Below are positions 1-38,998 of a stretch of 64,000 bases of DNA, in pieces. The position numbers were made by a program, and so were the translations under genes. How positions within the stretch are numbered: the first letter of the stretch is position 1; every line of letters starts with the position of its first letter. Source of the DNA: Candidatus Woesebacteria bacterium GW2011_GWC1_42_9 (lineage in GTDB: Bacteria; Patescibacteriota; Microgenomatia; UBA8517); NCBI GenBank assembly GCA_000995185.1, contig LCET01000004.1, positions 2,630 through 66,629 of the forward strand. Reading direction: 5' to 3'. The notes under the pieces were generated by a model, which had not been told where the DNA came from, made no database searches, and saw only the letters and a program-made list of their open reading frames with translations.

Positions 1-210
1 GGTACCTTTCTACACCTTAATATTTACTATTAAATAGAAAAACTTGGGGTGTAAATAGTCCCGCAAAGCGGGACTGGGTTCTCCCATTTGGAAATCGTCG
101 GATCAAAGCTTTGTGGCAGCTCCCCGGCGCTTATCGCAGCCTTACGCGTCCTTCATCAGCAACTTATGCCTAGGCATCCACTGTTTGCATTAAGTAGACT
201 TTCGGCATTT
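1..210 (-). rRNA. rrl: 23S rRNA, 5' end (partial; continues beyond window start)
   Basis: Reverse complement reads ...GTGGATGCCTAGGCATAAGTTGCTGATGAAGGACGCGTAAGGCTGCGATAAGCGCCGGGGAGCTGCC...AAGCTTTGATCC...AATGGGAGAACCC, matching the universally conserved 5' domain of 23S rRNA. Confidence 0.75.
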
Positions 211-240
211 CTCTTCAGATGTCAAAGTACAATCCGAGAG

Positions 241-315
241 TGGACCCGAGGGGATTCGAACCCCTGACCCCTACATTGCAAATGTAGTGCTCTAAGCCAA
301 CTGAGCTACGGGCCC
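241..315 (-). tRNA. tRNA-Ala (anticodon UGC)
   Basis: RC gives GGGCCCGTAGCTCAGTTGGCTTAGAGCACTACATTTGCAATGTAGGGGTCAGGGGTTCGAATCCCCTCGGGTCCA; cloverleaf with 7-nt loop TTTGCAA and the G3:U70 Ala identity pair; no CCA encoded. Confidence 0.85.
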
Positions 316-502
316 CTGAGCACAGGAATACTAAATGAAGTTAATTAACGAGGCTAATTTCCACAACTGCCCCCTCGTTTATATGTTTGTGGCATATTCA
401 TAAAGTTTCCGAACTCAAAGTTAGTGAAGATTATACTATTATATTTGGGTCTAGTCAAACAACGAGACAGAATGCCCCTCAAACTGATATACTACGAGGC
501 GC

Positions 503-576
503 GGGCTTGTAGCTCAGTTGGCTAGAGCGCCAAACTGATAATTTGGAGGTCCCAGGTTCGAGTCCTGGCAAGCCCA
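503..576 (+). tRNA. tRNA-Ile (anticodon GAU)
   Basis: GGGCTTGTAGCTCAGTTGGCTAGAGCGCCAAACTGATAATTTGGAGGTCCCAGGTTCGAGTCCTGGCAAGCCCA; anticodon loop CTGATAA; canonical T-loop TTCGAGT; opposite strand to the flanking rRNA genes. Confidence 0.85.
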
Positions 577-578
577 CT
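559..578 (+). repeat. Direct repeat copy 0 (T-arm/acceptor 3' end of tRNA-Ile itself): CGAGTCCTGGCAAGCCCACT
   Basis: Same 20-21 nt string recurs at 628-647 and (1-nt deletion) 928-946. Confidence 0.8.
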
Positions 579-915: not shown

Positions 916-927
916 TTTAGATAAAGC

Positions 928-946
928 CGAGTCTGGCAAGCCCACT
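928..946 (+). repeat. Direct repeat copy 2 of tRNA-Ile 3' end (att-like, one C deleted)
   Basis: CGAGTC-TGGCAAGCCCACT; 19/20 match to tRNA 3' end. Confidence 0.75.
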
Positions 947-1074
947 AATAAATTACTATCTACCCCATAATATTGACTTTTTGGGAACCGATTATTATCT
1001 CGAGTTCCGAGTCCAGCGCGCAGACGACGGGCACTATGAATGTGTCCCAACTGAATAGCGCTGATTAACATCAA

Positions 1075-1105
1075 AGGGTGAACCCTAAAGTTCACCCTTT
1101 TTTTG
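1075..1105 (+). terminator. Rho-independent terminator (AGGGTGAACCCTAAAGTTCACCCT + T7)
   Basis: Perfect 9-bp stem, 6-nt loop, T-run 1099-1105. Confidence 0.7.
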
Positions 1106-1120: not shown

Positions 1121-3361
1121 ATGCAGAGCCTTGTGACACTTTTTTTGAAAATTCCCAGAGAAACTGAGGTCACTCCGGAGGCCGCCCAAACTTTCCTGGC
1201 AAGCCTCACCCAAATCAATTCTGTTACAAGTTTCCAAAAATTAAGAGGGTTTAGACCACAAGTGCTATCGCTTGAAATTGCCTCCATTAATTCGCAAATT
1301 ATCTTTTTAATTACTTGCGACAAAGAATTGGTCCCGTTTGTGGAGGCCCAAATCCAGTCAAACTATCCGCTCGTCATCATCGAGCGCATCGAGGATCCTT
1401 TGGGGGAACATAAACTCAGCGTCAAAGAACTAACTCTAAGGAGAGGTAACTATTTCCCAATTAACACTTATCCTTTGTTTCAAGATGTTGATCCCTTGTC
1501 TTCAATACTAACTGTCCTAGCAAAGCTAAAAGTCAATGAGTTTGCCATGGTCCAGTACTCTCTTGAATCAATAAGCGGCTCTTGGCAGGGAGGAGGCCAG
1601 CGCTATGCAGAAACCGGCGGGGGAAAAACAGAAGAAGGGGTTTATATTGCCCATCCCGAAGCCGCGATCATCAAAGAAAAAATATCTTTTCCCGGGTTTG
1701 CGGTATCACTAAGATTAATCGGTTCATCCCAAATTACCCTTAACGCCCTTGCCAGTAGCTTTGGGGTATTTGCAAAATCGGACGGAAATTCCCTAGTCTC
1801 CCGCTCAAAAGGAGTATTCGGGCGAAGGTCGCTTATTAATGATGCCCGCAATCGAAGAGTTACCGACAGGCAAATCCTAAATATTTCCGAAATCGCAACC
1901 ATTTGGCATTTGCCAAGCGAGAAAGTAAAAATCCCCTCCATAGTGTGGGGCACTTCAGTCCTTTCCGAAGCCCCTGAAAACTTACCCGTTTCACAAGATA
2001 AAACCGACGAAGAAAAACAAAATATAAATTTTTTTGCCAAAGCTCCTTATAAAAACAAGGAGACGACTTTTGGTGTTTCCTCAAAAGACAGGAGAAGGCA
2101 TATGTGGGTCGTCGGGAAGACCGGCACCGGCAAATCTACCCTTATTGCCAACATGGCCATTGATGACATTAAAAAGGGGCAGGGGATTGCGGTCATTGAT
2201 CCGCATGGTGATCTTTGCGAAACTATTTTGGACTATATCCCAAGCCACAGGATTAATGATGTTGTTTACTTCAATCCCTTTGATCGCGACCATCCGATTG
2301 TCATTAACCCTCTTGAAGTGACAAGTAAAGAAGAGGCGGAGCTCGTGGTCTCGGGCCTCATGAGTATTTTCACGAAAATTTGGGCAAACGTGTGGTCTGC
2401 CCGGATGGAATATATTCTCCGAAATACCCTCCTTACTCTTTCGCAAGTACCGGAGACAACTTTTGCTGATGTCCTTACAATCCTAACGGATAGAAAATAC
2501 AGGGACCGCATCTGTGAAACAATCGATGATCACTCTCTCAAACAATTTTGGATCACAGAATATAATCAAATGCCGGATAGACTTCAAAAAGAGTCTATTT
2601 CACCGATACAAAACAAGGTCGGGCAGTTTGTGACTTCCCCATTAATCAGAAAAGTGATCGGCTCTCCCAAAAGCACTATTCACTTAGATGAAGTAATGGA
2701 CGAGGGCAAAATTCTCCTCGCAAATCTTTCCCAAGGGAAAATTGGCGAAGATAATTCAGCTTTGCTTGGAGCGACTTTGATAACCAAATTACAGCAAGGA
2801 GCGATGCAAAGAGTAAATATCGATGAAGAAAAACGCCGAGATTTTTACCTCTACGTTGACGAGTTCCAAAATTTTGCCACCACAAGCTTTATCAAAATCC
2901 TTTCAGAAGCCCGAAAATACAGGCTTAATTTGATGCTTGCCAATCAGTACATGGCCCAGATCCCGGAGGATGTCCAAAAGGCGATACTCGGGAATGTGGG
3001 GAGCTTGATCTCATTTGGAGTCGGAGCGGAGGATGCTGAAGTAATTCACAAAGAATTTTCAGAAGTGTTTTCGCAAAATGATTTAGTTAATCTTTCAAAC
3101 TTTCAAGTTGCTGTAAAGCTCATGGTTGAGGGGCATGCTTCGAGGCCGTTTTTGGCACATACTCTGCCTGAGCCAGCAAGTAAAAACCAAAATAGAGAGA
3201 CGGTAATTCAAGTTAGCCGAGAGCGCTGGAGCCAAAAGCCGGGGACAGATATCAAAAGCCATGGTCAAAAATATATTGAGCGCCGCGAAGCCGCTCAAGC
3301 CCGCTCCCGAGAACAACAACAGCCCCAACAAAGACAATATCGCCCTCAACATAGAAATTAG
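1121..3361 (+). CDS. Type IV coupling-protein-like ATPase (VirD4/TraG/TraD family; TraG-D_C-like C-terminal domain), paralog 1
   Basis: Walker A VVGKTGTGKST; DPHGD; Walker B/TraG-D_C block RRDFYLYVDEFQNFATTSF...ILSEARKYRLNLMLANQY...GNVGSLISFGVG. Six-frame track begins at TTG 1103, which overlaps the promoter; ATG 1121 preferred. Confidence 0.75.
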   Translation: MQSLVTLFLKIPRETEVTPEAAQTFLASLTQINSVTSFQKLRGFRPQVLSLEIASINSQIIFLITCDKELVPFVEAQIQSNYPLVIIERIEDPLGEHKLSVKELTLRRGNYFPINTYPLFQDVDPLSSILTVLAKLKVNEFAMVQYSLESISGSWQGGGQRYAETGGGKTEEGVYIAHPEAAIIKEKISFPGFAVSLRLIGSSQITLNALASSFGVFAKSDGNSLVSRSKGVFGRRSLINDARNRRVTDRQILNISEIATIWHLPSEKVKIPSIVWGTSVLSEAPENLPVSQDKTDEEKQNINFFAKAPYKNKETTFGVSSKDRRRHMWVVGKTGTGKSTLIANMAIDDIKKGQGIAVIDPHGDLCETILDYIPSHRINDVVYFNPFDRDHPIVINPLEVTSKEEAELVVSGLMSIFTKIWANVWSARMEYILRNTLLTLSQVPETTFADVLTILTDRKYRDRICETIDDHSLKQFWITEYNQMPDRLQKESISPIQNKVGQFVTSPLIRKVIGSPKSTIHLDEVMDEGKILLANLSQGKIGEDNSALLGATLITKLQQGAMQRVNIDEEKRRDFYLYVDEFQNFATTSFIKILSEARKYRLNLMLANQYMAQIPEDVQKAILGNVGSLISFGVGAEDAEVIHKEFSEVFSQNDLVNLSNFQVAVKLMVEGHASRPFLAHTLPEPASKNQNRETVIQVSRERWSQKPGTDIKSHGQKYIERREAAQARSREQQQPQQRQYRPQHRN

Positions 3362-3427: not shown

Positions 3428-3859
3428 ATGAAAATAGCGACGGCTATTCAACTTTTCTTGTCTATCGCCCTAGTTGTAATCTTTTGTCTTGCTTATCTGC
3501 CAGTAACGGGATCCATAGCAGATGAAACGGCACCGATCGAGGAGCCTGCAGAAATGCAAACAACGCAGGAAGTGGCCGTAGAAAAACTGCAAGATCTCGG
3601 CGAATTTCACGCCTTATGGAGCATTAATGACGGCACGGGAGTGCGTTTAGTTGTCACCGGCGGCCCTGAGAGCACTGCAGTCGGACTGCGCTTTGCTGGC
3701 ATCCAATCTGTGAACGTCGTTGAGGACACAGCCGACATGGCTGATCACACAATGTGGCTTATCATTGTCGCCCTGCGATTACAACCAGACAGGGTGTGTC
3801 AAGTGATTATCGGCAACAGTCCCGCGAGCACCGCCTCGTTTGAATGCCCAATCGGCTAA
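3428..3859 (+). CDS. Hypothetical small protein with N-terminal signal peptide/TM helix
   Basis: MKIATAIQLFLSIALVVIFCLAYLPVTGS...; RBS present; followed by terminator. Confidence 0.55.
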   Translation: MKIATAIQLFLSIALVVIFCLAYLPVTGSIADETAPIEEPAEMQTTQEVAVEKLQDLGEFHALWSINDGTGVRLVVTGGPESTAVGLRFAGIQSVNVVEDTADMADHTMWLIIVALRLQPDRVCQVIIGNSPASTASFECPIG

Positions 3860-3879
3860 ATAATAAACAATGTGATACG

Positions 3880-3911
3880 AGCACTTGGAAGCGATTTCAA
3901 GTGCTTTTTTT
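3880..3911 (+). terminator. Rho-independent terminator (AGCACTTG-loop-CAAGTGCT + T7)
   Basis: 8-bp stem followed by TTTTTTT. Confidence 0.65.
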
Positions 3912-4028: not shown

Positions 4029-5519
<1,491 letters not shown>

Positions 5520-7208: not shown

Positions 7209-7490
7209 CTAGATGACCGACACCTGTGATATAAGATCAACAACTGTTTGAGGGTCTGGAACAGTGGTGCGTATAGACGGCCACCGTAAAACCCTGCCGC
7301 TTACCGCATCAGGAAGGACCTCTGCCACTTTATTAAGATCCTCAACATTCTTTGACACCAACACGGCGTAGGGATACTCCTCTCCCTCACACCTAAAGAC
7401 GGCAATGTTGGACGGATTATGTGGATCCATAATCGCCTCAAGTGCCCCAACGAGACTCTCCACGACAGTAACTATCATTTCTTCCTCCAA
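7209..7490 (-). CDS. Hypothetical small acidic protein (93 aa)
   Basis: ORF flanked by the same modules. Confidence 0.55.
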   Translation of the reverse strand: MEEEMIVTVVESLVGALEAIMDPHNPSNIAVFRCEGEEYPYAVLVSKNVEDLNKVAEVLPDAVSGRVLRWPSIRTTVPDPQTVVDLISQVSVI

Positions 7491-7528
7491 AAAAACTCAA
7501 ACGGACGAATGGAAAGAATAAACTAGAG

Positions 7529-7576
7529 GAATTATACCAAAAAAAATAGGCGGACCTAAATAAATAGATTCGCCTA
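7529..7576 (-). promoter_or_regulatory. Terminator hairpin + T8 + GGTATAATTCC promoter module (minus strand)
   Basis: Minus strand: TAGGCGAATCTATTTATTTAGGTCCGCCTA TTTTTTTT GGTATAATTCC. Confidence 0.55.
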
Positions 7577-7597
7577 CCCCGCCGCCGACAAAAAAGA

Positions 7598-8083
7598 CTA
7601 GCTAACCCGCCGAATTGCGAGCTGTTTTTTCAGTTCGCACTCGCGGGATTGCAAAACCTTCCATAAATGGCGCAACCGACCTGAGACTTCTTCGCCTGAG
7701 ATTTTTTGAGGAACTGAAAATTCATTGCCGGCGCAAGTTTTGATTACATCGACGACAATGGTCACCTTTCCGTCCCCTCCTCCGTTTTGGTTCTTGACCA
7801 TAACGGGTTCAGGTTGCCGAAAAAATTGATACAGAAGAACCAAGTTATCGTTGTAAGGAGATGACGCCTTCACCCAATAATGATTGGTTGGCAGATCGCC
7901 ATCAACGGTTGGAATTCCCATACCAAGTTTCCTCTCATTCTCCAGTATTCGAAATACAGATGTCCTGGCCCTTTCAAAGAACCAGTTAATCTCGTCGCGT
8001 CTGTTTGTAAACTTCGGTACTCCGTTGCTCTCATCCTCCGGCCTATTAAAGACGGGGTCTGGATTCTTGCCATCTTGAGACAT
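7598..8083 (-). CDS. Hypothetical protein (161 aa)
   Basis: ORF with GGAGGAAAAATG RBS. Confidence 0.55.
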   Translation of the reverse strand: MSQDGKNPDPVFNRPEDESNGVPKFTNRRDEINWFFERARTSVFRILENERKLGMGIPTVDGDLPTNHYWVKASSPYNDNLVLLYQFFRQPEPVMVKNQNGGGDGKVTIVVDVIKTCAGNEFSVPQKISGEEVSGRLRHLWKVLQSRECELKKQLAIRRVS

Positions 8084-22406: not shown

Positions 22407-22601
22407 TTAGTTTGTGCCCGCCGAGAAAAAAATAAATATCAAAATAACCACTCCTATAAAAATCATCCCAAAAAGTACGCTAATTAGCCCATACCATTCC
22501 TCGTGAATTACTTTATTAGTGCCTTCCCCAATCAAAGCCAAACCAAACAAAGTTGGCAGAATCAGTATCATATATAATAATTGCGGGCCAGTTACACTCA
22601 T
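22407..22601 (-). CDS. Small membrane protein (64 aa)
   Basis: Two hydrophobic helices. Confidence 0.35.
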   Translation of the reverse strand: MSVTGPQLLYMILILPTLFGLALIGEGTNKVIHEEWYGLISVLFGMIFIGVVILIFIFFSAGTN

Positions 22602-23659
22602 GGTCGTTTCAAGTTATACCGGGCGGCTTTTGTCCTCCCTTCCTTTTCAATTATACCCTTGTTTATTAAGTCAGCGACGTCTCTTAAAATTGTATCATCA
22701 CTAACCATCGTCAATACATTTTTCAGATCGCTCATCGCCGCCTGTTTATTTTCAGAAATATACTCAATAAGCTTCATTTGCCTGGCAGAAAGAGCAACCT
22801 GTTCTCCGATCCGGGCACGAAGCCGAGAATCAACAGAGAGTTTTCTAACTTTCTCTTTTATCTTTACTAGCTCCACCCCAAGAGTTTCCGAAAAATACTC
22901 AATCCAGCTTGTTAAATCCCTCGCGGCGATATCGGTAGATTGCCTATCGACCTCATTAAAGGCGCCATAATATGCATCAAGATCCCGATCAAAATGTTCC
23001 TCCAACGAGAAAAATCGCTTAATGTCATAGCCTTCTTTTAGCATGACAAGGGCCGCATAGGCGCGAGAGGCTCTGCCGTTTCCTTCCACAAACGGATGGA
23101 TCGCAACTAAAACATAGTGGACAATGGCCGCTTTTATCACCGGGTGAATTTCGCGGGATTCTCTCGAGTTAAGCCAATTAAAAAAATCTTCCAGGAGATA
23201 GGGGATTTCCAAAGCCGGCGGAGGAGACAAAATCACCTTTCCGGTCCCCTCTTCCCGGATAACCACCTGAGTACTCCTTAAGACTCCAGACTTTTCTTCC
23301 GGAATTAGCCGGTACACAGTGGCTCTGTGGATCATCAGTAGGGAATCCAAATTGTAAGTATCCTGCTTTGCAAAATCTTCAAGAGTGCGTACGACATGCC
23401 GGTAGTTGATCACTTCCTGGACATCTCGCTCTCTGGCATATACCTCCTGCCCATCCAAAACCTGCTTTGTCTGGTCAAGCGTCAGGGCATTTCCTTCTAT
23501 TTGCGTGCCATGATATACAGTTCTGATAATTGCATCTGATTGAAACTGCTTCTCATAATCCGGTACCAGTGGAGCGTTCTCGATGACTTCCTTAGAAGCT
23601 TCTACTTGCCCAATATTTCGGAGAATTTTGTTGCTAATGATGTATTTTGGTGAATACAT
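22598..23659 (-). CDS. Fic-family protein (canonical motif)
   Basis: HPFVEGNGRASR; N-terminal TQIEGN inhibitory-like motif. Confidence 0.8.
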   Translation of the reverse strand: MYSPKYIISNKILRNIGQVEASKEVIENAPLVPDYEKQFQSDAIIRTVYHGTQIEGNALTLDQTKQVLDGQEVYARERDVQEVINYRHVVRTLEDFAKQDTYNLDSLLMIHRATVYRLIPEEKSGVLRSTQVVIREEGTGKVILSPPPALEIPYLLEDFFNWLNSRESREIHPVIKAAIVHYVLVAIHPFVEGNGRASRAYAALVMLKEGYDIKRFFSLEEHFDRDLDAYYGAFNEVDRQSTDIAARDLTSWIEYFSETLGVELVKIKEKVRKLSVDSRLRARIGEQVALSARQMKLIEYISENKQAAMSDLKNVLTMVSDDTILRDVADLINKGIIEKEGRTKAARYNLKRP

Positions 23660-32738: not shown

Positions 32739-32807
32739 TGCGGGGTAGTGTAGGGTGCACGGGAGGCTCATAATCTCCCAGACTAGGTCCGACTCCTAGC
32801 CCCGCAA
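32739..32807 (+). tRNA. tRNA-like gene with CAU anticodon, noncanonical T-loop (TCCGACT) and short D-loop; identity uncertain (initiator/Met/Ile2) or pseudo-tRNA
   Basis: TGCGGGGTAGTGTAGGGTGCACGGGAGGCTCATAATCTCCCAGACTAGGTCCGACTCCTAGCCCCGCAA folds into cloverleaf with 7-bp acceptor (U1:A72). Confidence 0.4.
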
Positions 32808-32812
32808 CATAT

Positions 32813-32885
32813 GGCAGGGTAGCTCAGTAGGTAGAGCACAGGATTCATAAACCTGCGGTCGTGGGTTCGATTCCCACCCCTGCTA
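32813..32885 (+). tRNA. tRNA-Met (anticodon CAU)
   Basis: GGCAGGGTAGCTCAGTAGGTAGAGCACAGGATTCATAAACCTGCGGTCGTGGGTTCGATTCCCACCCCTGCTA. Confidence 0.7.
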
Positions 32886-33263
32886 CTAAAATAACTTGAG
32901 CCACTTTTGCCAATTCTGAAGAGGAATTTCGTTTTCTAATTCACGCTCAATCCTCGGAGATAGCTTTCGAAGTGTTTCACTGTCGGGCAGGACAACGACA
33001 ATTTCCCCCTCCTTCGCGAGACCCAACTTATCGCGCGCTTGCTTTTCGATATAATCCTCGCTTCTCACAAACTTAATTTGGTCGGCCAAATCCCGATTTT
33101 TTTTATCTAATTCTTCCAAAGCAGAATAAGCATCATCAATCGCCCGATTTATCCGATATAATCGCATGACATTTCGAGCCAGCGAAAGCGATAAAACAAG
33201 TAATATTGCCGCCACAAGATACCGAATTAACCTATGTTTTGGCAATTTATCTTTGATACCCAT
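32886..33263 (-). CDS. FtsB/DivIC-like septum formation initiator
   Basis: N-terminal TM, coiled coil, EDYIEKQARDKLGLAKEGE. Confidence 0.6.
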   Translation of the reverse strand: MGIKDKLPKHRLIRYLVAAILLVLSLSLARNVMRLYRINRAIDDAYSALEELDKKNRDLADQIKFVRSEDYIEKQARDKLGLAKEGEIVVVLPDSETLRKLSPRIERELENEIPLQNWQKWLKLF

Positions 33264-33301: not shown

Positions 33302-34165
33302 ATGTCGAATGAACCACTTAAGACTTTATTGCCTAAGTTTATCAAAAATTTAGAGGAGGCAGGAAGATCACCTTCAACCATCCTCGCCTACCGCTCCGAT
33401 TTGGTGCAATTGATTGACTACCTGGAAAAATTCAGCAAGGTAACCACTGATCAAGTCAAATCGCAAGATCTCGAGGGCTTCCGTGACTATTTACTAAGTC
33501 AGAAATATACCCCAAAGTCTGTATCTAGAAAACTAAATGCTATTAAGACCTTTTTTAGATGGTTGGTAACCAATAGTCTTATAGTCAAGGATGTTTCGCG
33601 TGATGTAGAACATCCTAGAATAGAGGCAACTTTGCCAAAGTTTTTGACCCAACTTGAATATCGCGCTTTAAGGGACGCAGTCCGAGCTGATCAGCGCATT
33701 GCCACGATTGTAGAATTAATCTTACAAACCGGCATGAGGATCTCAGAAATTGCGAATCTCAAAGCAAAAAATGTTCTTCAAAAGGAAATTATCATCGAAG
33801 CTTTCGCCACCCAGCCAGAAAGAAAAATCCACCTTAACGCAACTGCCAAAAAATCAGTCGATGACTATCTGAAAATCCGTCCGGAAACAGGGGAAGAATT
33901 TTTGTTTGTCAGCAAAAACGGGAAGCAACTGGCAGTAAGAAATATCAGGGCAGCGATAGACCGCCATATGCAAAGAGCCGGAGTTCCAAATTACTCTGTA
34001 AATGATCTTCGAACTACTTTTATAGTTGAGAACTTGAAACGAGGAGTGGATTTGGTAGTTATCTCAAAAATGGCCGGCCACAAGCGCCTCTCAACGACAG
34101 AGCGCTACCTTCAGTTGGCCGAAATCTCCGAGCACGGCGGCAAACAGTTAATAGAAGAACTGTAA
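33302..34165 (+). CDS. Tyrosine recombinase (XerC/XerD-like phage-integrase family)
   Basis: Core-binding AYRSDLVQLIDYL; catalytic R (GMRISE), LR box, AGHKRLSTTERY (H..Y). Confidence 0.8.
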   Translation: MSNEPLKTLLPKFIKNLEEAGRSPSTILAYRSDLVQLIDYLEKFSKVTTDQVKSQDLEGFRDYLLSQKYTPKSVSRKLNAIKTFFRWLVTNSLIVKDVSRDVEHPRIEATLPKFLTQLEYRALRDAVRADQRIATIVELILQTGMRISEIANLKAKNVLQKEIIIEAFATQPERKIHLNATAKKSVDDYLKIRPETGEEFLFVSKNGKQLAVRNIRAAIDRHMQRAGVPNYSVNDLRTTFIVENLKRGVDLVVISKMAGHKRLSTTERYLQLAEISEHGGKQLIEEL

Positions 34166-34171
34166 CTCTAG

Positions 34172-34244
34172 TGGGCCGGGAAGGATTCGAACCTTCGACT
34201 TCCAACTTATAAGATTGGCACTCTAACCGCTGAGTTACCGGCCC
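34172..34244 (-). tRNA. tRNA with anticodon UAU (tRNA-Ile(UAU)-like)
   Basis: RC: GGGCCGGTAACTCAGCGGTTAGAGTGCCAATCTTATAAGTTGGAAGTCGAAGGTTCGAATCCTTCCCGGCCCA; anticodon stem CCAAT/GTTGG, loop CTTATAA. Confidence 0.6.
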
Positions 34245-34321: not shown

Positions 34322-36637
34322 CTATAGCTTCGCGCGTCTGGCAATTTCAGATTCCACGAGCCGTAGGTCCCGCCCATATCGCAGCCTACTCATCTCCCGG
34401 ATGATCCCGGCAATTTTTGGATTTGATCCAGAAATAATCTTTTCAAGATCCATTGTAAGATCAACTGAAAAAGGAGGAACTGGCTCATTGTTCACAATTG
34501 TCTTCATATAAACATGGAAGCGCTCAATATTTAATAAATCATCCTCTTCAAAGCTTGGAACAAACTCGTGGGCTAGATAATTGGCATCCGATACTCCTAC
34601 GCGGTATGAAATCAGTGTCCCCACATTCCCAAAAATCGCATTTTTAATATCTTCATCAATCTGCCCTACAAACTGATTTGCCACTGTCAAGTTTAAGCGG
34701 TATTTCCTTGCTTCAGAGAGAATCTGAGCAAAATCGGGAGTGGCAAAATTTTGAAACTCATCAACGTAAAGATAAAAATCCCGGCGTTTTTCTTCAGGTA
34801 TATCGGACCTGCTCATCGCCGCCATTAAAATTCTTGGGACAAGTATTAATCCCAAGAAATTGGAATTCTCTTCTCCTAGTTCCCCTTTTGCAAGATTTAC
34901 TAAAAGTATTTTCCCTTGATCCATAATTTCCCGAAAATCAAACGACGATTTAGATTGACCGATAATATTTCTGACCATCTTATTGGTAACGAACCTCCCA
35001 AATTTACTGGTGATATAGTCCAAGGTTTCTGATTTGTGGAACTCAGACGTCTGGGCAATTTGATCAGTCCAATAACGCCTGACAATGGGGTCCTGAACTT
35101 TGGGGAGTATTTCACGGACATACTCGGGATCAGTCAAAATCCTCATTACCTCTATAAACGTACTTCCCTCTTCGCTCATGGCCGTAAGCATCGCATTCCT
35201 CACGGCATGCTCAAATCTCGGACCAACTATTCCAGTCTTGTAAGGATCAAAAAGCTTGTACATTAAATTAATAATCGATGTCGTCACGAAGTGCTTTTGG
35301 TCCTCGGTCTGTGCTTCTAAAAGATTTAATCCCATCGGCCTCTCGCTATCACCCGGCCTAAAGTAAATCACATCTTCGCTTCTCTCAGAAGGAATGTAAT
35401 TTAAAATATCCTCAACTGCATCTCCATGAGGATCTATAAAGCACACTCCCCGCCCAGCATTTATATCCTGCCTGATCATGGATTTTAAAAATTCAGTCTT
35501 CCCGGTGCCAGTTTTCCCAATAATATACATATGGCGCTGGCGGTCGCTCTCCGCCATAAATACCGGCCTTCTTACCCCGCGAAAACTACTCACCCCAACA
35601 TAGAGTCCTTCAGTTGGTATTTGTGCGGGCGCTGGCGCACGCTTGGCATGAATCCAATCAATATGGGGAGTGGTAATCGCCTTGTTTGGAAAATGAAAAA
35701 TAGAAGCTAATTCCTCGGAATTTAAAATTGATCGCCGGTTACTACCTAAATGCATTGCAGGCTGATAACGGTAAATAAAATCTTCGACAAAACTTGCTTT
35801 TCTTCTAACTTTTCTCGTGCCAAGCTGATTATGTTCCCCATTAAATTGGGACATTGTTCCCAATATATTTGAAAGGTGCGCTTTAGCCGATTCGCTGTTT
35901 CCCGAAACAACAACAACCCGAATGGAAGTTTCAAATCCAGGCTTTGAAGATTTATTCTCAATCGCTTCAAGGGTTTTTGCGCTTGTTGAAAATTTGGCAC
36001 TTTCAGGGTCAGCTTCCTGTTTTTTGGTGCTGCTGACAAATCCCTTGCCTGCTTTTTGCCACTTACCTTCTGCCGGGGAAATTAATATTTGGACCGCGGC
36101 CGCCTCCCCTTTCCCCATCTTTGCCATGGCACTAGTAAGGGAAGATAGGGGATCAGTGGGCAAATCTTTATAAGTAGTCAGGGGGTAATGATTTTCTTTC
36201 TTTAGTTGTAGGGCGGAGTACGCCACAGACCCCTCCTCTCCAAAAATTTCATACTCCGGGACTTCAAGAATCTCGGCATCTTGATATGCTCCATGGATCT
36301 GCTTTTCGATCATGTCCCGATATTCATTAAATGTCCAGACATAAAACTTTATATCCTCCAGCCTGGCAACAATCTCAAAAGAAATCACCGGCTGAGTGGA
36401 GAAACGCATCTTAAACCCGCCTTTTTTAATGGAATAGAGGGAGGCAATAATCTGCTCCATCGCATCGATCTTCACTTCATTGCTCCGAGATACCTTTACC
36501 AAAAGAAGTGAAGAATTAAGTGACCTTCCTTCTCTGTCATGCAGACGAATTTGACTGATGATATACCAAGCGATTCCAGCTGCAAATATCACGAGAGCTC
36601 CAGTAACGATTAGGGCAATAAACAGTGTCGTTAGCAT
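34322..36637 (-). CDS. Type IV coupling-protein-like ATPase (VirD4/TraG/TraD family), paralog 2, N-terminal TM helix
   Basis: IIGKTGTGKTEF, DPHGD, EEKRRDFYLYVDEFQNFATPDF, ILSEARKYRLNL (blocks identical to paralog 1). Confidence 0.75.
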   Translation of the reverse strand: MLTTLFIALIVTGALVIFAAGIAWYIISQIRLHDREGRSLNSSLLLVKVSRSNEVKIDAMEQIIASLYSIKKGGFKMRFSTQPVISFEIVARLEDIKFYVWTFNEYRDMIEKQIHGAYQDAEILEVPEYEIFGEEGSVAYSALQLKKENHYPLTTYKDLPTDPLSSLTSAMAKMGKGEAAAVQILISPAEGKWQKAGKGFVSSTKKQEADPESAKFSTSAKTLEAIENKSSKPGFETSIRVVVVSGNSESAKAHLSNILGTMSQFNGEHNQLGTRKVRRKASFVEDFIYRYQPAMHLGSNRRSILNSEELASIFHFPNKAITTPHIDWIHAKRAPAPAQIPTEGLYVGVSSFRGVRRPVFMAESDRQRHMYIIGKTGTGKTEFLKSMIRQDINAGRGVCFIDPHGDAVEDILNYIPSERSEDVIYFRPGDSERPMGLNLLEAQTEDQKHFVTTSIINLMYKLFDPYKTGIVGPRFEHAVRNAMLTAMSEEGSTFIEVMRILTDPEYVREILPKVQDPIVRRYWTDQIAQTSEFHKSETLDYITSKFGRFVTNKMVRNIIGQSKSSFDFREIMDQGKILLVNLAKGELGEENSNFLGLILVPRILMAAMSRSDIPEEKRRDFYLYVDEFQNFATPDFAQILSEARKYRLNLTVANQFVGQIDEDIKNAIFGNVGTLISYRVGVSDANYLAHEFVPSFEEDDLLNIERFHVYMKTIVNNEPVPPFSVDLTMDLEKIISGSNPKIAGIIREMSRLRYGRDLRLVESEIARRAKL

Positions 36638-36976
36638 TTACTTTTTAAAAATTACATGAATTCCATCCAGAACCGCCTGTTTAACTCTCCTCAGCCAAAA
36701 CACTCCAAACCAAGTACTAGCTTCATCAACATTACCCTTTGATAACTCTTCCAGCTCACTTTGATTGTCAGCCGGGATATTTGTTACCGCCGGTTTTGGC
36801 GGCATAGGTGCTTGAACTTCTTTTATCGTCCCCCCGATAATTGGTGCAGGCTGGCTACTACTACTCTTCGCTGAAGCAACGCCGACAGATGCTTCTTGGG
36901 ATGGTGTTACCTCCAATTTTGGCCCGCCTTGTTCAGGCGGAGTTTGAACCTCCGGAAATCTCTCTGGCGTGGTCAT
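36638..36976 (-). CDS. Hypothetical P/S-rich small protein, translationally adjacent to the coupling-protein gene
   Basis: Stop abuts ATG of 34322-36637 gene. Confidence 0.45.
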   Translation of the reverse strand: MTTPERFPEVQTPPEQGGPKLEVTPSQEASVGVASAKSSSSQPAPIIGGTIKEVQAPMPPKPAVTNIPADNQSELEELSKGNVDEASTWFGVFWLRRVKQAVLDGIHVIFKK

Positions 36977-36987
36977 GTCTCATTCTA

Positions 36988-37509
36988 TCATTTCCAAATC
37001 TCCTCGGTCACACCGGCTCGGAAATTGGACTCGCGGGCGAGGGTAAACAATAAATCTGAAATTCTATTTAGATATTTTAAAATTCCCGTGCTCACCTTTT
37101 CCCTTTGCGAAAGAGCAACCACCTGACGCTCCGCACGCCTGGAAAGCGAACGGCAGTATTGCAAATGAACGGAAAACTTGGTCCCGCTTGCCAGAATAAA
37201 ATTAGATAATTTTAGAAGAATTTTATCTAGCTCATCAATTTTCTTTTCTAATCTTTTAGCCTTTTCGGTGCCAAACCTAGCCTTATTCCCTGCCAAAATA
37301 GAATTTAGCAAAAATAAATCCCGCTGAAGTGAACTTATAAATTCTTTCGTCTGAGAATTTTCAGAATAGGAAGCCGTCACTCCTAAATAGCTATTTAATT
37401 CATCAACCGCTCCTATGGCGCGGATCTTTACGGAATCCTTTCTAATCCGGTCCTTCGAAGCCAAAGTTCCCGTAGTTCCAGAGTCGCCTTTTTTGGTATA
37501 TATACCCAT
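36988..37509 (-). CDS. ATP:cob(I)alamin adenosyltransferase, PduO-type
   Basis: MGIYTKKGDSGTTG...RAIGAVDELNSYLG. Confidence 0.75.
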   Translation of the reverse strand: MGIYTKKGDSGTTGTLASKDRIRKDSVKIRAIGAVDELNSYLGVTASYSENSQTKEFISSLQRDLFLLNSILAGNKARFGTEKAKRLEKKIDELDKILLKLSNFILASGTKFSVHLQYCRSLSRRAERQVVALSQREKVSTGILKYLNRISDLLFTLARESNFRAGVTEEIWK

Positions 37510-37699
37510 TTCTTTGTTGGTATTCTACCAATATTTTCTATAATCAACAATTTCCCCCCCTCACGGCATCACGGCACCACCTCCCTCCACACAATCTTGT
37601 TTGGAGAGAGGGAGGAAGGGAAATGAAGATAATTGGCAGGATTCATCGTGAATGTTTCCGCAGGATTTGCATTCCCTCCGCCGAGATTGCGGGAGAGGG

Positions 37700-38194
37700 T
37701 TACCCCTGAGAGGGTAACCACTGATCCCAGGGTGGTGAGTGGTTGGTAAACCCCCCATCTGCAAAGAAGATCCCCTGCAAAGAGGTGACTGTTGGGTCAA
37801 CGATGATGTCCCCGCTCACTACAATCAAAAGAAAATCGTTGGCTGTACTGGCCAGAGTGACATTCCCGGTGATTGTGAGGTTCCCCTCCACAAAAAGGAC
37901 CACTTTCCCATTGATGGTGGCATTTGTGAGGGTGAGGTCTCCTGGAGAGGCGAACCATTTGTAGCCGTCAGGAGAAAGAGATCCTCCAGAGAATCCCCCT
38001 GTCCCCATTGTCCCGCTAGCCGCATTGGTGACTGCATCAGAGGGGATCTTTCCCTCAAAGATGGCGTAGTCCAGAGACTCATTCCCGGAGAAAGCGAGAG
38101 GGGCGTCTACTTTCCAAGGGGTATCCCCTCCTCCAAGCCCAAGGTTCCCTGAATACAGGGCAATGGCGGTGGATGAATTGGCATTTGAGGCCAC
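37700..38194 (-). CDS. Beta-helix-like repeat protein (probable C-terminal part of a secreted adhesin-like protein)
   Basis: NLTITGNVTLASTANDFLLIVVSGDIIVDP repeats; start overlaps stop of upstream ORF (TGATG); GC-rich. Confidence 0.45.
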   Translation of the reverse strand: MASNANSSTAIALYSGNLGLGGGDTPWKVDAPLAFSGNESLDYAIFEGKIPSDAVTNAASGTMGTGGFSGGSLSPDGYKWFASPGDLTLTNATINGKVVLFVEGNLTITGNVTLASTANDFLLIVVSGDIIVDPTVTSLQGIFFADGGFTNHSPPWDQWLPSQG

Positions 38195-38652
38195 TAAGTA
38201 GCTGTGCCTCTGACTCTGGCAGTTCCGGGAGTGAGGCCAGTGACATTGGTGGTGTATGAAGGGAGAGTGCTGTCCCTGGTGGGGTTAATGGAAATGCTTC
38301 CGGTGAGTCCCCCGATTGGGGCATTAACGGCAGTGAAATCAACCCACTGGACAGTCCCATTGGCTACCCCCTGCACGGTGGCGGCGACCACCCCCACTGG
38401 CCCACCCACCGAGACAGTGACATCATTCAAGGTGACACCAGTGCAGGAAGCGGCAGGAGCACAGCCTGGACAGCTGGCGTCATTACTGGCACTGCAATCT
38501 GTGTAGCAAACGGTCACATTGTCCACATTACTGCGGCAATACCCGGTTCTTCTCCTGCAAGCTGCACAAGGGAAAGTCGTTGCTTCTGCCATCGGCTCCA
38601 CACAGAGCTGGAGAAGGTGTAGGTGTGGGGGTTGGGGTGGGAGCTGCCGCAC
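38194..38652 (-). CDS. Cys-rich segment, likely frameshifted continuation of 38528-38998 ORF
   Basis: Overlaps 38528-38998 by 125 nt in another frame. Confidence 0.35.
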   Translation of the reverse strand: MRQLPPQPPHLHLLQLCVEPMAEATTFPCAACRRRTGYCRSNVDNVTVCYTDCSASNDASCPGCAPAASCTGVTLNDVTVSVGGPVGVVAATVQGVANGTVQWVDFTAVNAPIGGLTGSISINPTRDSTLPSYTTNVTGLTPGTARVRGTAT

Positions 38653-38998
38653 AAAAGCCTCCGGAGGGCGATCCGGTCCCTAAAGTACAACCAATTTGAT
38701 CCCCTTGACCATCTGTAACAGGGCTACAAGCTGTATTTAGCCAAGCACTCCATGTGCACTGGCCAAAATTCCAATAACAAGATGCATTATGAGTACTTGG
38801 GGTACCTGGACTACAAGATGCGATGTTCTTACGTTTAATCGGGTTATAAGTGTAATTACAGGTATATTGTGTATAGAAATATGTAGTTGAGCCGCAATAG
38901 GCTTGAGCCTTGACAGTTTTATAAGAGGAGAAAAAGGCTGCGGAAGCAAGCAGTAGGGCTCCTGAAATAAGAATGAATTTGGATAATTTCATTATCAT
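38528..38998 (-). CDS. Secreted Cys-rich protein with (TP)n linker (N-terminal part)
   Basis: Signal peptide MIMKLSKFILISGALLLASAAFF; 12 Cys; APTPTPTPTPSP. Confidence 0.5.
   Translation of the reverse strand: MIMKLSKFILISGALLLASAAFFSSYKTVKAQAYCGSTTYFYTQYTCNYTYNPIKRKNIASCSPGTPSTHNASCYWNFGQCTWSAWLNTACSPVTDGQGDQIGCTLGTGSPSGGFCAAAPTPTPTPTPSPALCGADGRSNDFPLCSLQEKNRVLPQ

Follow-up and report, generated by a model that had tools for sequence, protein, structure and literature searches.

A stretch of 64,000 nt from contig LCET01000004.1 of Candidatus Woesebacteria bacterium GW2011_GWC1_42_9 (hereafter, the window) encodes two large ATPases that resemble the coupling proteins of conjugation and are designated here paralogue A and paralogue B. 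The question raised by this locus is what such proteins do in a chromosome where neither gene lies beside a secretion system. An earlier note on this DNA had regarded the two as orphan coupling proteins of the VirD4/TraG type, possibly repurposed for something other than conjugation, and had proposed checking this by profile searches against coupling-protein and HerA/FtsK models, by a genome-wide search for VirB4, and by a phylogeny of the two copies. Placement of A and B in the VirD4/TraG/TrwB coupling-protein branch, and not with HerA or FtsK, is supported by the results described below, and the two are ancient paralogues, inherited vertically as core chromosomal genes of bacteria of the Candidate Phyla Radiation (CPR). 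The finding is correct but already published, its central idea having appeared in a survey of Patescibacteria (PMC12102498).

Both open reading frames (ORFs) are present as the earlier note had placed them, and their products are 100% identical to KKS98834.1 and KKS98874.1 of Candidatus Woesebacteria bacterium GW2011_GWB1_43_14 (GCA_000999115.1). The blocks said to be common to the two proteins (EEKRRDFYLYVDEFQNFAT, ILSEARKYRLNL, GKTGTGK, DPHGD, and LNISEIATIWHLP/LNSEELASIFHFP) were all located. By BLASTP, A and B share 35% identity and 55% similarity over 710 aa (E 4e-138) in a collinear alignment running from residue ~5 of A and residue ~39 of B through to the C-terminal region, which confirms the claimed collinearity of their N-terminal domains and, at the level of sequence, marks them as true paralogues. 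Across 33 A- and B-type sequences, GKTGTGK(S/T), DPHGD, YVDEFQNFAT, and SEARKYRLNL..ANQ are invariant. Because the catalytic motifs (Walker A, Walker B, RK motif, and sensor Q) are invariant in both paralogues, A and B are each predicted to be, probably, active ATPases. The longest ORF for A would begin at TTG 1103; ATG 1121 is taken as the true start because five orthologues all begin M-x(3-5)-TLFLKIPR, and the resulting 746-aa gene call is present in other assemblies. The GenBank calls are N-terminally short (699 versus 746 aa for A; 756 versus 771 aa for B), and the omitted segments (1121-1261 and 36593-36637) cost A the conserved start of its N-terminal domain, DUF8128, and B half of its transmembrane (TM) helix.

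Family placement was examined with Pfam models whose gathering scores are 20.5 bits for TrwB_AAD_bind, 22 for TraG-D_C, 24 for FtsK_SpoIIIE, 27.5 for AAA_10, and 25.8 for P-loop_TraG. TrwB_AAD_bind (42 and 29.5 bits; residues 363-660) and TraG-D_C (32.7 and 23.6 bits) score just above these thresholds, and the central domain DUF87/HerA gives a weak pass, also just above its gathering score (38.7 and 28.2 bits). FtsK_SpoIIIE (13.3 and 18.2 bits), AAA_10 (14.8 bits), and P-loop_TraG (18.2 bits) remain under cut-off. A family profile built from the same 33 sequences was searched against all Protein Data Bank (PDB) sequences and retrieved TrwB (7e-5) and DotL (2e-4) first, HerA being marginal (0.04); VirB4/TrwK was not detected by this profile among those sequences. 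The CONJScan profile t4cp1 is recorded as matching both proteins in the listed part of Table S3 of PMC12102498. In structural terms, Foldseek matches the model to whole TrwBdeltaN70 (TM-score over the target, 0.57-0.65, over about 430 columns), and nine helices between Walker A and Walker B (residues 445-574) constitute an all-alpha insertion in the AlphaFold2 model of B. The profile comparison proposed in the earlier note thus favours the TrwB/TraG models, with FtsK failing and HerA weak or marginal, and together with the Bacillus homology described below it upholds the coupling-protein assignment.

The features that would mark other members of this ATPase superfamily were likewise looked for. 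Every NCBIfam match is far under its cut-off, those to helicase_HerA (13 against 970) and VirB4_CagE (14.7 against 643) included. For HerA, the DUF87 match is a weak one; the fold search with the N-terminal domain returned VirB4 and not HerA, and no nuclease partner occurs in a set of 160 related loci, whose proteins were clustered and to which all neighbour counts below refer. Beyond its sub-threshold Pfam score, an FtsK identity is opposed by the model, which contains no winged-helix/gamma C-terminal domain, and the C-terminal ATPase signatures of VirB4 (AAA_10, CagE_TrbE_VirB) do not reach their cut-offs. With TrwB of R388, VirD4, TraD, and DotL, the two proteins share the P-loop motor, DPxGD, a DE-type Walker B, the RK...Q motifs, and the all-alpha insertion. 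Canonical type IV coupling proteins (T4CPs), however, place a membrane domain of two helices immediately ahead of the motor and lack any VirB4-like N-domain, whereas B has one TM helix followed by the 300-aa DUF8128, and A and its orthologues have no TM helix at all.

The N-terminal domain of ~300 aa corresponds to PF26449 (DUF8128) in precomputed Pfam matches. Searched alone against 1.84 billion representatives, DUF8128 returned 2,041 clusters and was always N-terminal, in full-length proteins of 800-1,100 aa; no mention of it was found in the searchable literature. The AlphaFold2 model of full-length B (pLDDT 84) comprises an N-terminal helix (residues 2-31), an alpha/beta domain (36-345), a RecA-type motor, and C-terminal helices. 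Foldseek searches of the PDB with this model gave TrwK/VirB4 of R388 first (E 1.6e-16, about 850 columns), followed by TrwB (7e-12, about 430 columns), and then by HerA and Cag-beta. With a model of the N-domain alone (pLDDT 86, pTM 0.86), the top 13 PDB matches were all to the TrwK N-domain (E 1.4e-8 to 2.4e-6; TM-score over the query, 0.44-0.52), and the next were unrelated folds (E 2e-5 or weaker, TM-score about 0.29). Because of these top matches, DUF8128 is read as having the fold of the VirB4 N-terminal domain, mounted on a coupling-protein-like motor; the likeness, as modelled, is structural only. VirB4/TrwK shares the two-domain layout and N-domain fold of A and B but no sequence likeness beyond the P-loop, and the genome encodes a separate, bona fide VirB4 (KKS98993.1). 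The order of TM helix and N-domain in B resembles that in VirB3-VirB4 fusions.

Relatives of the whole protein are also found on plasmids. While the ATPase half matches 737 plasmid records at 27-34% identity, an 833-aa protein of Bacillus methanolicus plasmid pBM69 (WP_003349917.1) aligns over 657 columns (hhalign probability 100%, E 1.3e-45), with family residues 62-733 against 35-729 and the entire N-domain included. Its gene heads a Tcp-type module that also contains Replic_Relax (relaxase-type), TcpC, TcpE, and an AAA_10 VirB4-type ATPase, the last of which matches the CPR family at the P-loop only (hhalign probability 1.8%). Homology thus extends to a protein in the coupling position of a module that is conjugative by gene content. 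The N-domain by itself finds 51 Bacillaceae and haloarchaeal plasmids in a plain tblastn search; VirD4 of pLS20 is of a different, canonical type. On the basis of this full-length and N-domain homology, A and B are assigned to a lineage of coupling proteins from the conjugation systems of monoderms and archaea, in agreement with the MPF-FATA ancestry proposed for CPR VirB4 (PMC12102498). The Bacillaceae "DUF87" ATPase and the haloarchaeal plasmid proteins resemble A and B in motor motifs as well, and the pBM69 protein is of similar size (833 versus 746-771 aa). It is, however, single-copy, plasmid-borne, and in an operon with Replic_Relax, TcpC, TcpE, and a VirB4-type ATPase, unlike the CPR genes, which are duplicated, chromosomal, unlinked to a type IV secretion system (T4SS), and without a relaxase.

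Shorter homologues also exist. Viral contigs, and many plasmids classified as non-mobilizable, carry ATPase-only proteins of 395-432 aa that lack DUF8128 and show 28-43% identity; examples are found in L170 (9938-11236), L172-L174, and L178 (7971-9158), and on a Sulfitobacter plasmid (E 6e-71). L170 (GC 0.42) may be a CPR phage. The PHROG family phrog_5156, of unknown function, matches B at 333 bits.

Within CPR bacteria, searches with the two paralogues returned >7,900 and >6,800 homologues. There are about two genes per genome, with identities of 45-75% across classes, and both types occur together on contigs of 925 kb and 545 kb and in the complete genome CP055307. The phylogeny of the copies, a neighbour-joining tree of the ATPase domain only (147 sequences), places 80 of 80 B-like copies in one clade, with 63 of 63 A-like copies forming the complement. 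An N-terminal TM helix is predicted in 75 of the 80 B-like copies, in 16 of 21 more distant A-like copies, and in only one of 44 A-like copies with at least 42% identity to A; the A protein has lost its membrane anchor in Microgenomates and is soluble there. Tandem pairs, always with B before A, are present in seven loci of distant CPR lineages. The clade split, the co-occurrence, and these pairs indicate that the duplication predates the sampled CPR radiation, and the two genes were probably once an operon.

Other genes accompany some of these copies. In five independent tandem loci (L140, L143, L144, L146, and L147), SecF and SecD lie convergent just after the pair, as confirmed by Pfam in L144, and in L146 a type IV pilin-like gene with an N_methyl motif (7266-7832) separates the two ATPases. 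Outside Woesebacteria, a ~350-aa protein with N-terminal sigma-70 region 4 and a HARE-HTH domain (RNA polymerase delta-like) is encoded directly upstream of the A-like ATPase, on the same strand, in 16 loci at a median gap of 66 bp (for example, L154:1199-2251 and L146:8689-9717), and is likely a DNA-binding operon partner of it. A ~170-aa "IEGIFDGE" ORF between tandem ATPases was discounted as a partner, as it occurs in four loci only and is absent from the window.

With regard to the secretion machinery itself, 20 otherwise unannotated proteins of the window gave no match to a Pfam family of T4SS components or relaxases, although several small ORFs there have no Pfam match at all and very divergent components could escape; nor do the precomputed Pfam matches for genes within 10 kb past either window end include such a family. 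The earlier statement that no relaxase, VirB4, or other T4SS gene occurs in the 64 kb holds to this extent. Among the 160 loci, the neighbours are housekeeping genes, and none of the VirB3, VirB6, VirB8, pilin, relaxase, or mobile genetic element families is enriched near either paralogue. The label "orphan", in contrast, fails at genome scale. In the survey of 3,035 Patescibacteria genomes by Quiñonero-Coronel et al. (2025, Microb Genom, PMC12102498), Table S3 gives KKS98834.1 and KKS98874.1 as T4CPs not near virB4 (gene indices 756 and 796), and among the rows listed for the same 904-kb genome are seven VirB2-like pilins (genes 888-896), TrsD (901; KKS98992.1), and VirB4 (902); no relaxase for this genome appears among them. 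The genome-wide search for VirB4 proposed earlier thus has a positive answer in those rows. In all, 5,713 VirD4-type T4CP homologues were counted in 2,918 genomes, about two per genome, as opposed to only 109 relaxases, and exaptation of t4cp genes "cannot be ruled out" in the words of the authors. Repurposing away from conjugation is plausible because the phylum is relaxase-poor, and it has already been proposed in print for these proteins, which are identical to A and B (PMC12102498).

The best explanation, given about an even chance of being right, is that A and B constitute a paired, substrate-feeding motor for a relaxase-less chromosomal T4SS. T4CPs and VirB4 are hexameric membrane-associated ATPases, and VirB4 of R388 is a hexamer of dimers docked on VirB3 and VirB8 via its N-domain. 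In the proposed mechanism, B would be anchored in the membrane by its N-terminal helix and modulated by a small, translationally coupled partner. It would recruit the soluble A, and both would assemble at the membrane, probably together if the VirB4 hexamer of dimers and the CedB/CedD pair of archaea are apt analogies. The two would spend ATP to recruit a substrate and push it into the chromosomal T4SS (VirB2-like pilins, TrsD, and VirB4), a role that would be coupling-protein-like in a machine for host interaction or DNA exchange rather than plasmid conjugation.

Several observations weigh against this explanation. The NCBIfam T4CP models all score far under their cut-offs (for instance, conju_CD1115 at 48.5 against 250 and SXT_TraD at 56 against 366). 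The VirB4-like character of the N-domain exists at the level of fold, at a TM-score of about 0.5, and is missed by sequence profiles. A physical or genetic link of A and B to the T4SS is hypothetical, and the genes are not near virB4 here, a situation that is general in the survey, where 148 of the 5,713 T4CP homologues lie near virB4 and 5,565 do not. VirB4 was detected in 2,417 of the 3,035 genomes as compared to 2,918 for T4CP, leaving at least about 500 without a detected VirB4, a figure confounded by incompleteness of metagenome-assembled genomes. In S. epibionticum, the t4cp homologue is non-essential by transposon sequencing whereas the T4SS genes are essential (PMC12102498, citing Wang 2023), and no recognisable coupling protein was found in the T4SS cluster by Wang et al. 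Finally, the interaction of A with B is read solely from co-occurrence, tandem ancestry, and complementary anchoring.

Of the alternatives, the one that fares best, though it is unlikely, is a T4SS-independent translocase for relaxase-independent DNA import or exchange, comparable to CedB/CedD of Crenarchaeota and perhaps acting with type IV pili or ComEC, that would supply DNA or nucleotides to an auxotrophic cell. CedB and CedD, paired VirB4-NTD-bearing paralogues that are both needed for relaxase-independent archaeal DNA import, are the closest architectural analogue of A and B. Each system is a co-occurring pair for which joint action is proposed, built from a TM segment (where present), a VirB4-NTD-like domain, and an ATPase of the HerA/VirB4 superfamily. 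Weak NCBIfam matches to CedB and CedD speak for this reading, but their scores (24.5 against 700 and 34.8 against 600) are far under the family cut-offs, and the resemblance is architectural only. Moreover, CedB and CedD divide the VirB4 NTD between them, each N-domain covering a complementary part, whereas the N-domain of each CPR protein spans all of it, and the Ced motors are of the HerA clade, not T4CP-like, and replace VirB4, which CPR bacteria retain. The wider distribution of T4CP homologues than of VirB4, their near-complete lack of linkage to virB4, and the dispensability of t4cp beside an essential T4SS in S. epibionticum (all PMC12102498) fit a Ced-like role, as do the sigma-70 region 4/HARE-HTH protein before 16 A-like copies and the pilin-like gene of L146. 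Against it, none of the 160 loci has a linked channel gene of the CedA/VirB6 kind, the full-length Bacillus homologue sits in an export (conjugation) module, and ComEC-dependent transformation is already accounted for in S. epibionticum.

It is improbable, although less easily set aside than the readings that follow, that A and B have separate jobs and do not interact, B serving for example as a membrane coupling protein and A as a soluble DNA- or protein-handling ATPase. The genes are 33 kb apart in Woesebacteria with differing neighbours and partners, the proteins are only 35% identical, and A is set apart by its low-complexity tail and the lack of an anchor. Opposed to this are the near-constant co-occurrence at about two per genome (PMC12102498), the tandem B-then-A arrangement in seven loci of distant lineages, and the retention of the same domain set and invariant motifs in both.

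The features of the window on which these readings draw are collected in Table 1. Promoter and terminator sites of the A locus are consensus matches in the sequence.

Table 1. Features of the A and B loci (nucleotide positions are those of the window; residues are numbered within each protein).
Feature	Position	Strand	Remarks
23S rRNA, 5' end	1-204	-	
tRNA-Ala(UGC)	240-315	-	
Divergent promoter-like sites	430-493	both	Minus-strand TTGACT-17-TATAAT, 11/12, facing tRNA-Ala/23S
Plus-strand promoter-like site	within 430-493	+	TG-extended -10, just upstream of tRNA-Ile
tRNA-Ile(GAU)	503-577	+	Opposite strand to rRNA genes
Direct repeats of tRNA-Ile 3' end, 21 nt	558-578, 627-647, 926-946	+	Third copy with 1-nt deletion
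Terminator-like hairpin and T-run	1073-1100	+	20 nt before A start codon, then TGTATAAT
Paralogue A	1121-3361	+	746 aa; KKS98834.1, UV74_C0002G0054; no TM helix
A, DUF8128 N-domain	about 1121-2029	+	Pfam
A, T4CP-type ATPase	from about 2030	+	
A, Walker A GKTGTGKS	2114-2137	+	
A, Walker B VDE	2855-2863	+	
A, C-terminal tail		+	Variable, Q/R/P-rich
143-aa ORF downstream of A	3428-3859	+	N-terminal hydrophobic segment; not conserved
Terminator-like hairpin	3879-3906	+	Closes A unit before convergent 16S
16S rRNA gene	4030-5519	-	1,490 bp
DivIC/FtsB-type septum protein	32886-33263	-	Conserved neighbour, 28 loci
Xer-type tyrosine recombinase	33302-34165	+	Convergent with B; conserved chromosomal neighbour
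tRNA-Ile(UAU)	34171-34244	-	Immediately downstream of B
Paralogue B	34322-36637	-	771 aa; KKS98874.1, UV74_C0002G0095
B, N-terminal TM helix	36545-36637	-	Residues 2-31
B, DUF8128/VirB4-NTD-like domain	35603-36532	-	Residues 36-345
B, T4CP-type ATPase with all-alpha insertion	34448-35602	-	Residues about 346-730
B, Walker A	35495-35518	-	
B, Walker B	34757-34765	-	
B, C-terminus		-	Conserved basic helices
Small partner of B	36638-36976	-	112 aa; P/S/Q-rich disordered N-terminal part, conserved C-terminal helix
PduO-type cob(I)alamin adenosyltransferase-like gene	36988-37509	-	Upstream of partner-B pair; 21-23 loci

The small protein upstream of B has a C-terminal helix with the motif ...KG...S.TWFGVFWLRRVK..., and its stop codon abuts the B start codon. 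By BLAST alone, such an upstream ORF was found in 24 loci, on the same strand in 22 of them at a median gap of 2.5 bp, and an iterated hidden Markov model (HMM) of the ORF takes in the 112-aa protein of the window (E 1e-9). Of the 37 members of this family, 32 immediately precede a co-oriented B-type ATPase gene, and none occurs in A-type loci. Its status as a family rests on the local iterated HMM, since a large-database search gave near-identical copies only. Each ATPase does, as had been claimed, have small ORFs beside it, but a conserved partner family exists for B alone; related loci contain no homologue of either the upstream (76-aa) or the downstream (143-aa) ORF of A, and both were rejected as partners.

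The remaining neighbours of B form a conserved chromosomal block. Xer is a neighbour in 36 of 80 B-type loci, and ribonucleotide reductase and NrdR are found in 19 and 17 loci, respectively. A relative at 73% identity has exactly the same gene order, from cobalamin adenosyltransferase through partner, B, Xer, DivIC, TrpRS, and FtsH and beyond, and this order is found again across Microgenomates. The recombinase and tRNA noted earlier are thus both present, as parts of this synteny and not of an integrated element. The tRNA-Ile(UAU) (TAT in DNA) implies decoding of AUA without lysidine modification of a CAU tRNA, and two adjoining tRNA-Met(CAU) genes are located at 32739-32886.

The same neighbours suggest a third alternative, which is very unlikely: an FtsK-like role for B in segregating chromosomes or resolving their dimers. 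B, next to Xer and DivIC, would translocate DNA at the septum and switch on recombination by Xer. FtsK and the T4CPs belong to sister clades within a single ATPase superfamily, and linkage to Xer (downstream of B) and DivIC (28 loci) and the weak FtsK_SpoIIIE matches point in this direction. Yet Xer is convergent with B, not co-oriented, in 34 of the 36 loci, and the linkage is limited to Microgenomates, tandem-pair lineages having SecDF in its place. The FtsK_SpoIIIE scores of 13-18 bits fall short of 24, the model lacks a gamma/winged-helix domain, and the full-length homologue of the family is a conjugation ATPase. A separately annotated ftsK in TM7x is weaker evidence to the same effect.

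The surroundings of A are of a different kind. The earlier note had placed A inside the rRNA operon, and the gene does lie between 16S and 23S; it is, however, on the opposite strand with its own promoter-like and terminator-like sites, and for these reasons is regarded as being inside the rRNA spacer and not part of the rRNA transcript. The same placement, just downstream of a plus-strand tRNA, is seen in L002, L004, and L006, and tRNA-Ile lies 25-75 bp upstream of the A orthologue in relatives. Adjacency to rRNA genes was recorded in 14 of 24 metagenome loci with at least 53% identity to A and in 0 of 56 below that value (80 loci), which makes it a synteny specific to the Woesebacteria clade; a general functional link between A and the rRNA operon was discarded on the same grounds. 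In this clade (L002, L004, L006, and L088-L139), 16S and 23S are 3.8-12.5 kb apart with opposite-strand protein genes between them, and such wide spacers always hold an A-type ATPase and an inverted tRNA-Ile. The minus-strand promoter consensus (458 to 430, sigma-70-like) suggests that tRNA-Ala and 23S are transcribed separately from 16S. LAGLIDADG homing-endonuclease genes are found in relatives, just 3' of 16S (L002:13542-14039 and L004:13758-14228) or within a 4-kb 23S span (L006:5636-6151), whereas the 16S of the window has no such insertion.

Copies 2 and 3 of the tRNA-Ile repeat bracket the 76-aa coiled-coil ORF (685-915), which is missing from relatives, and the repeats are a probable scar of an old site-specific integration into the tRNA, judging from their sequence. 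A D-loop fragment of tRNA-Ile is repeated at 660-671. In place of the 143-aa ORF, relatives have a convergent ORF of 353-371 aa. Elsewhere in the window, the region 37561-38998 has many long overlapping ORFs on both strands without a Pfam match, including a 156-aa secreted-looking protein with a PTPTPTPTP linker, and a 353-aa Fic/DOC-domain protein (Pfam 62 bits) is encoded at 22598-23659 amid housekeeping genes.

The recombinase and tRNA beside B, the scar beside A, the phrog_5156 score, PADLOC matches (mad8 at 60 bits and HerA at up to 42 bits), and ATPase-only homologues on viral contigs and plasmids could suggest that A and B are left over from an integrated conjugative element or phage, or that they serve in anti-phage defence as ATPases of the HerA type, but this is largely refuted and barely credible: both copies sit amid housekeeping genes whose order is kept across species and classes (for B, down to the relative at 73% identity), both clades are phylum-wide and vertically structured, the scar encloses the 76-aa ORF and not A, the PADLOC matches are weak with no NurA, Sir2, or nuclease partner linked in the 160 loci, and, despite the high phrog_5156 score of B, the eight homologues on viral contigs consist of the ATPase alone (about 410-430 aa) and lack DUF8128.

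The paired-motor explanation can be extended, tentatively and with well under an even chance, to the family as a whole. Besides VirB4 and VirD4, the DUF8128 ATPases may represent a third line of T4SS motors, in which a VirB4 N-domain is carried on a coupling-protein motor and which could be an evolutionary intermediate between the other two. The CPR pair, with B anchored beside its partner and A recruited, would then form a hetero-oligomeric "hexamer of dimers" for relaxase-free movement of DNA or protein, which would either feed the essential epibiotic T4SS or itself work as a Ced-like importer.

The published survey (PMC12102498) is silent on the domain architecture, on the split into A and B clades, and on how the TM helix was lost from A, and it covers neither the partner proteins nor the tandem ancestry. 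The details added here are the VirB4-like fold of DUF8128, the full-length homology to Bacillaceae and haloarchaeal conjugation ATPases, the clade structure and tandem ancestry of A and B, the partner family of B, and the rRNA-spacer site of A in Woesebacteria. The CPR, or Patescibacteria, make up a large share of bacterial diversity and are host-dependent, and the T4SS is essential in the one genetically tractable species. A VirB4-like N-domain on a coupling motor, a shared stock with Gram-positive and archaeal ATPases, and the combination of an anchored with a soluble protein lead to a concrete model of a joint A-B motor. Few unexplained genes of the phylum are as conserved as A and B, and they bear on how a relaxase-less T4SS is powered and on what it moves.

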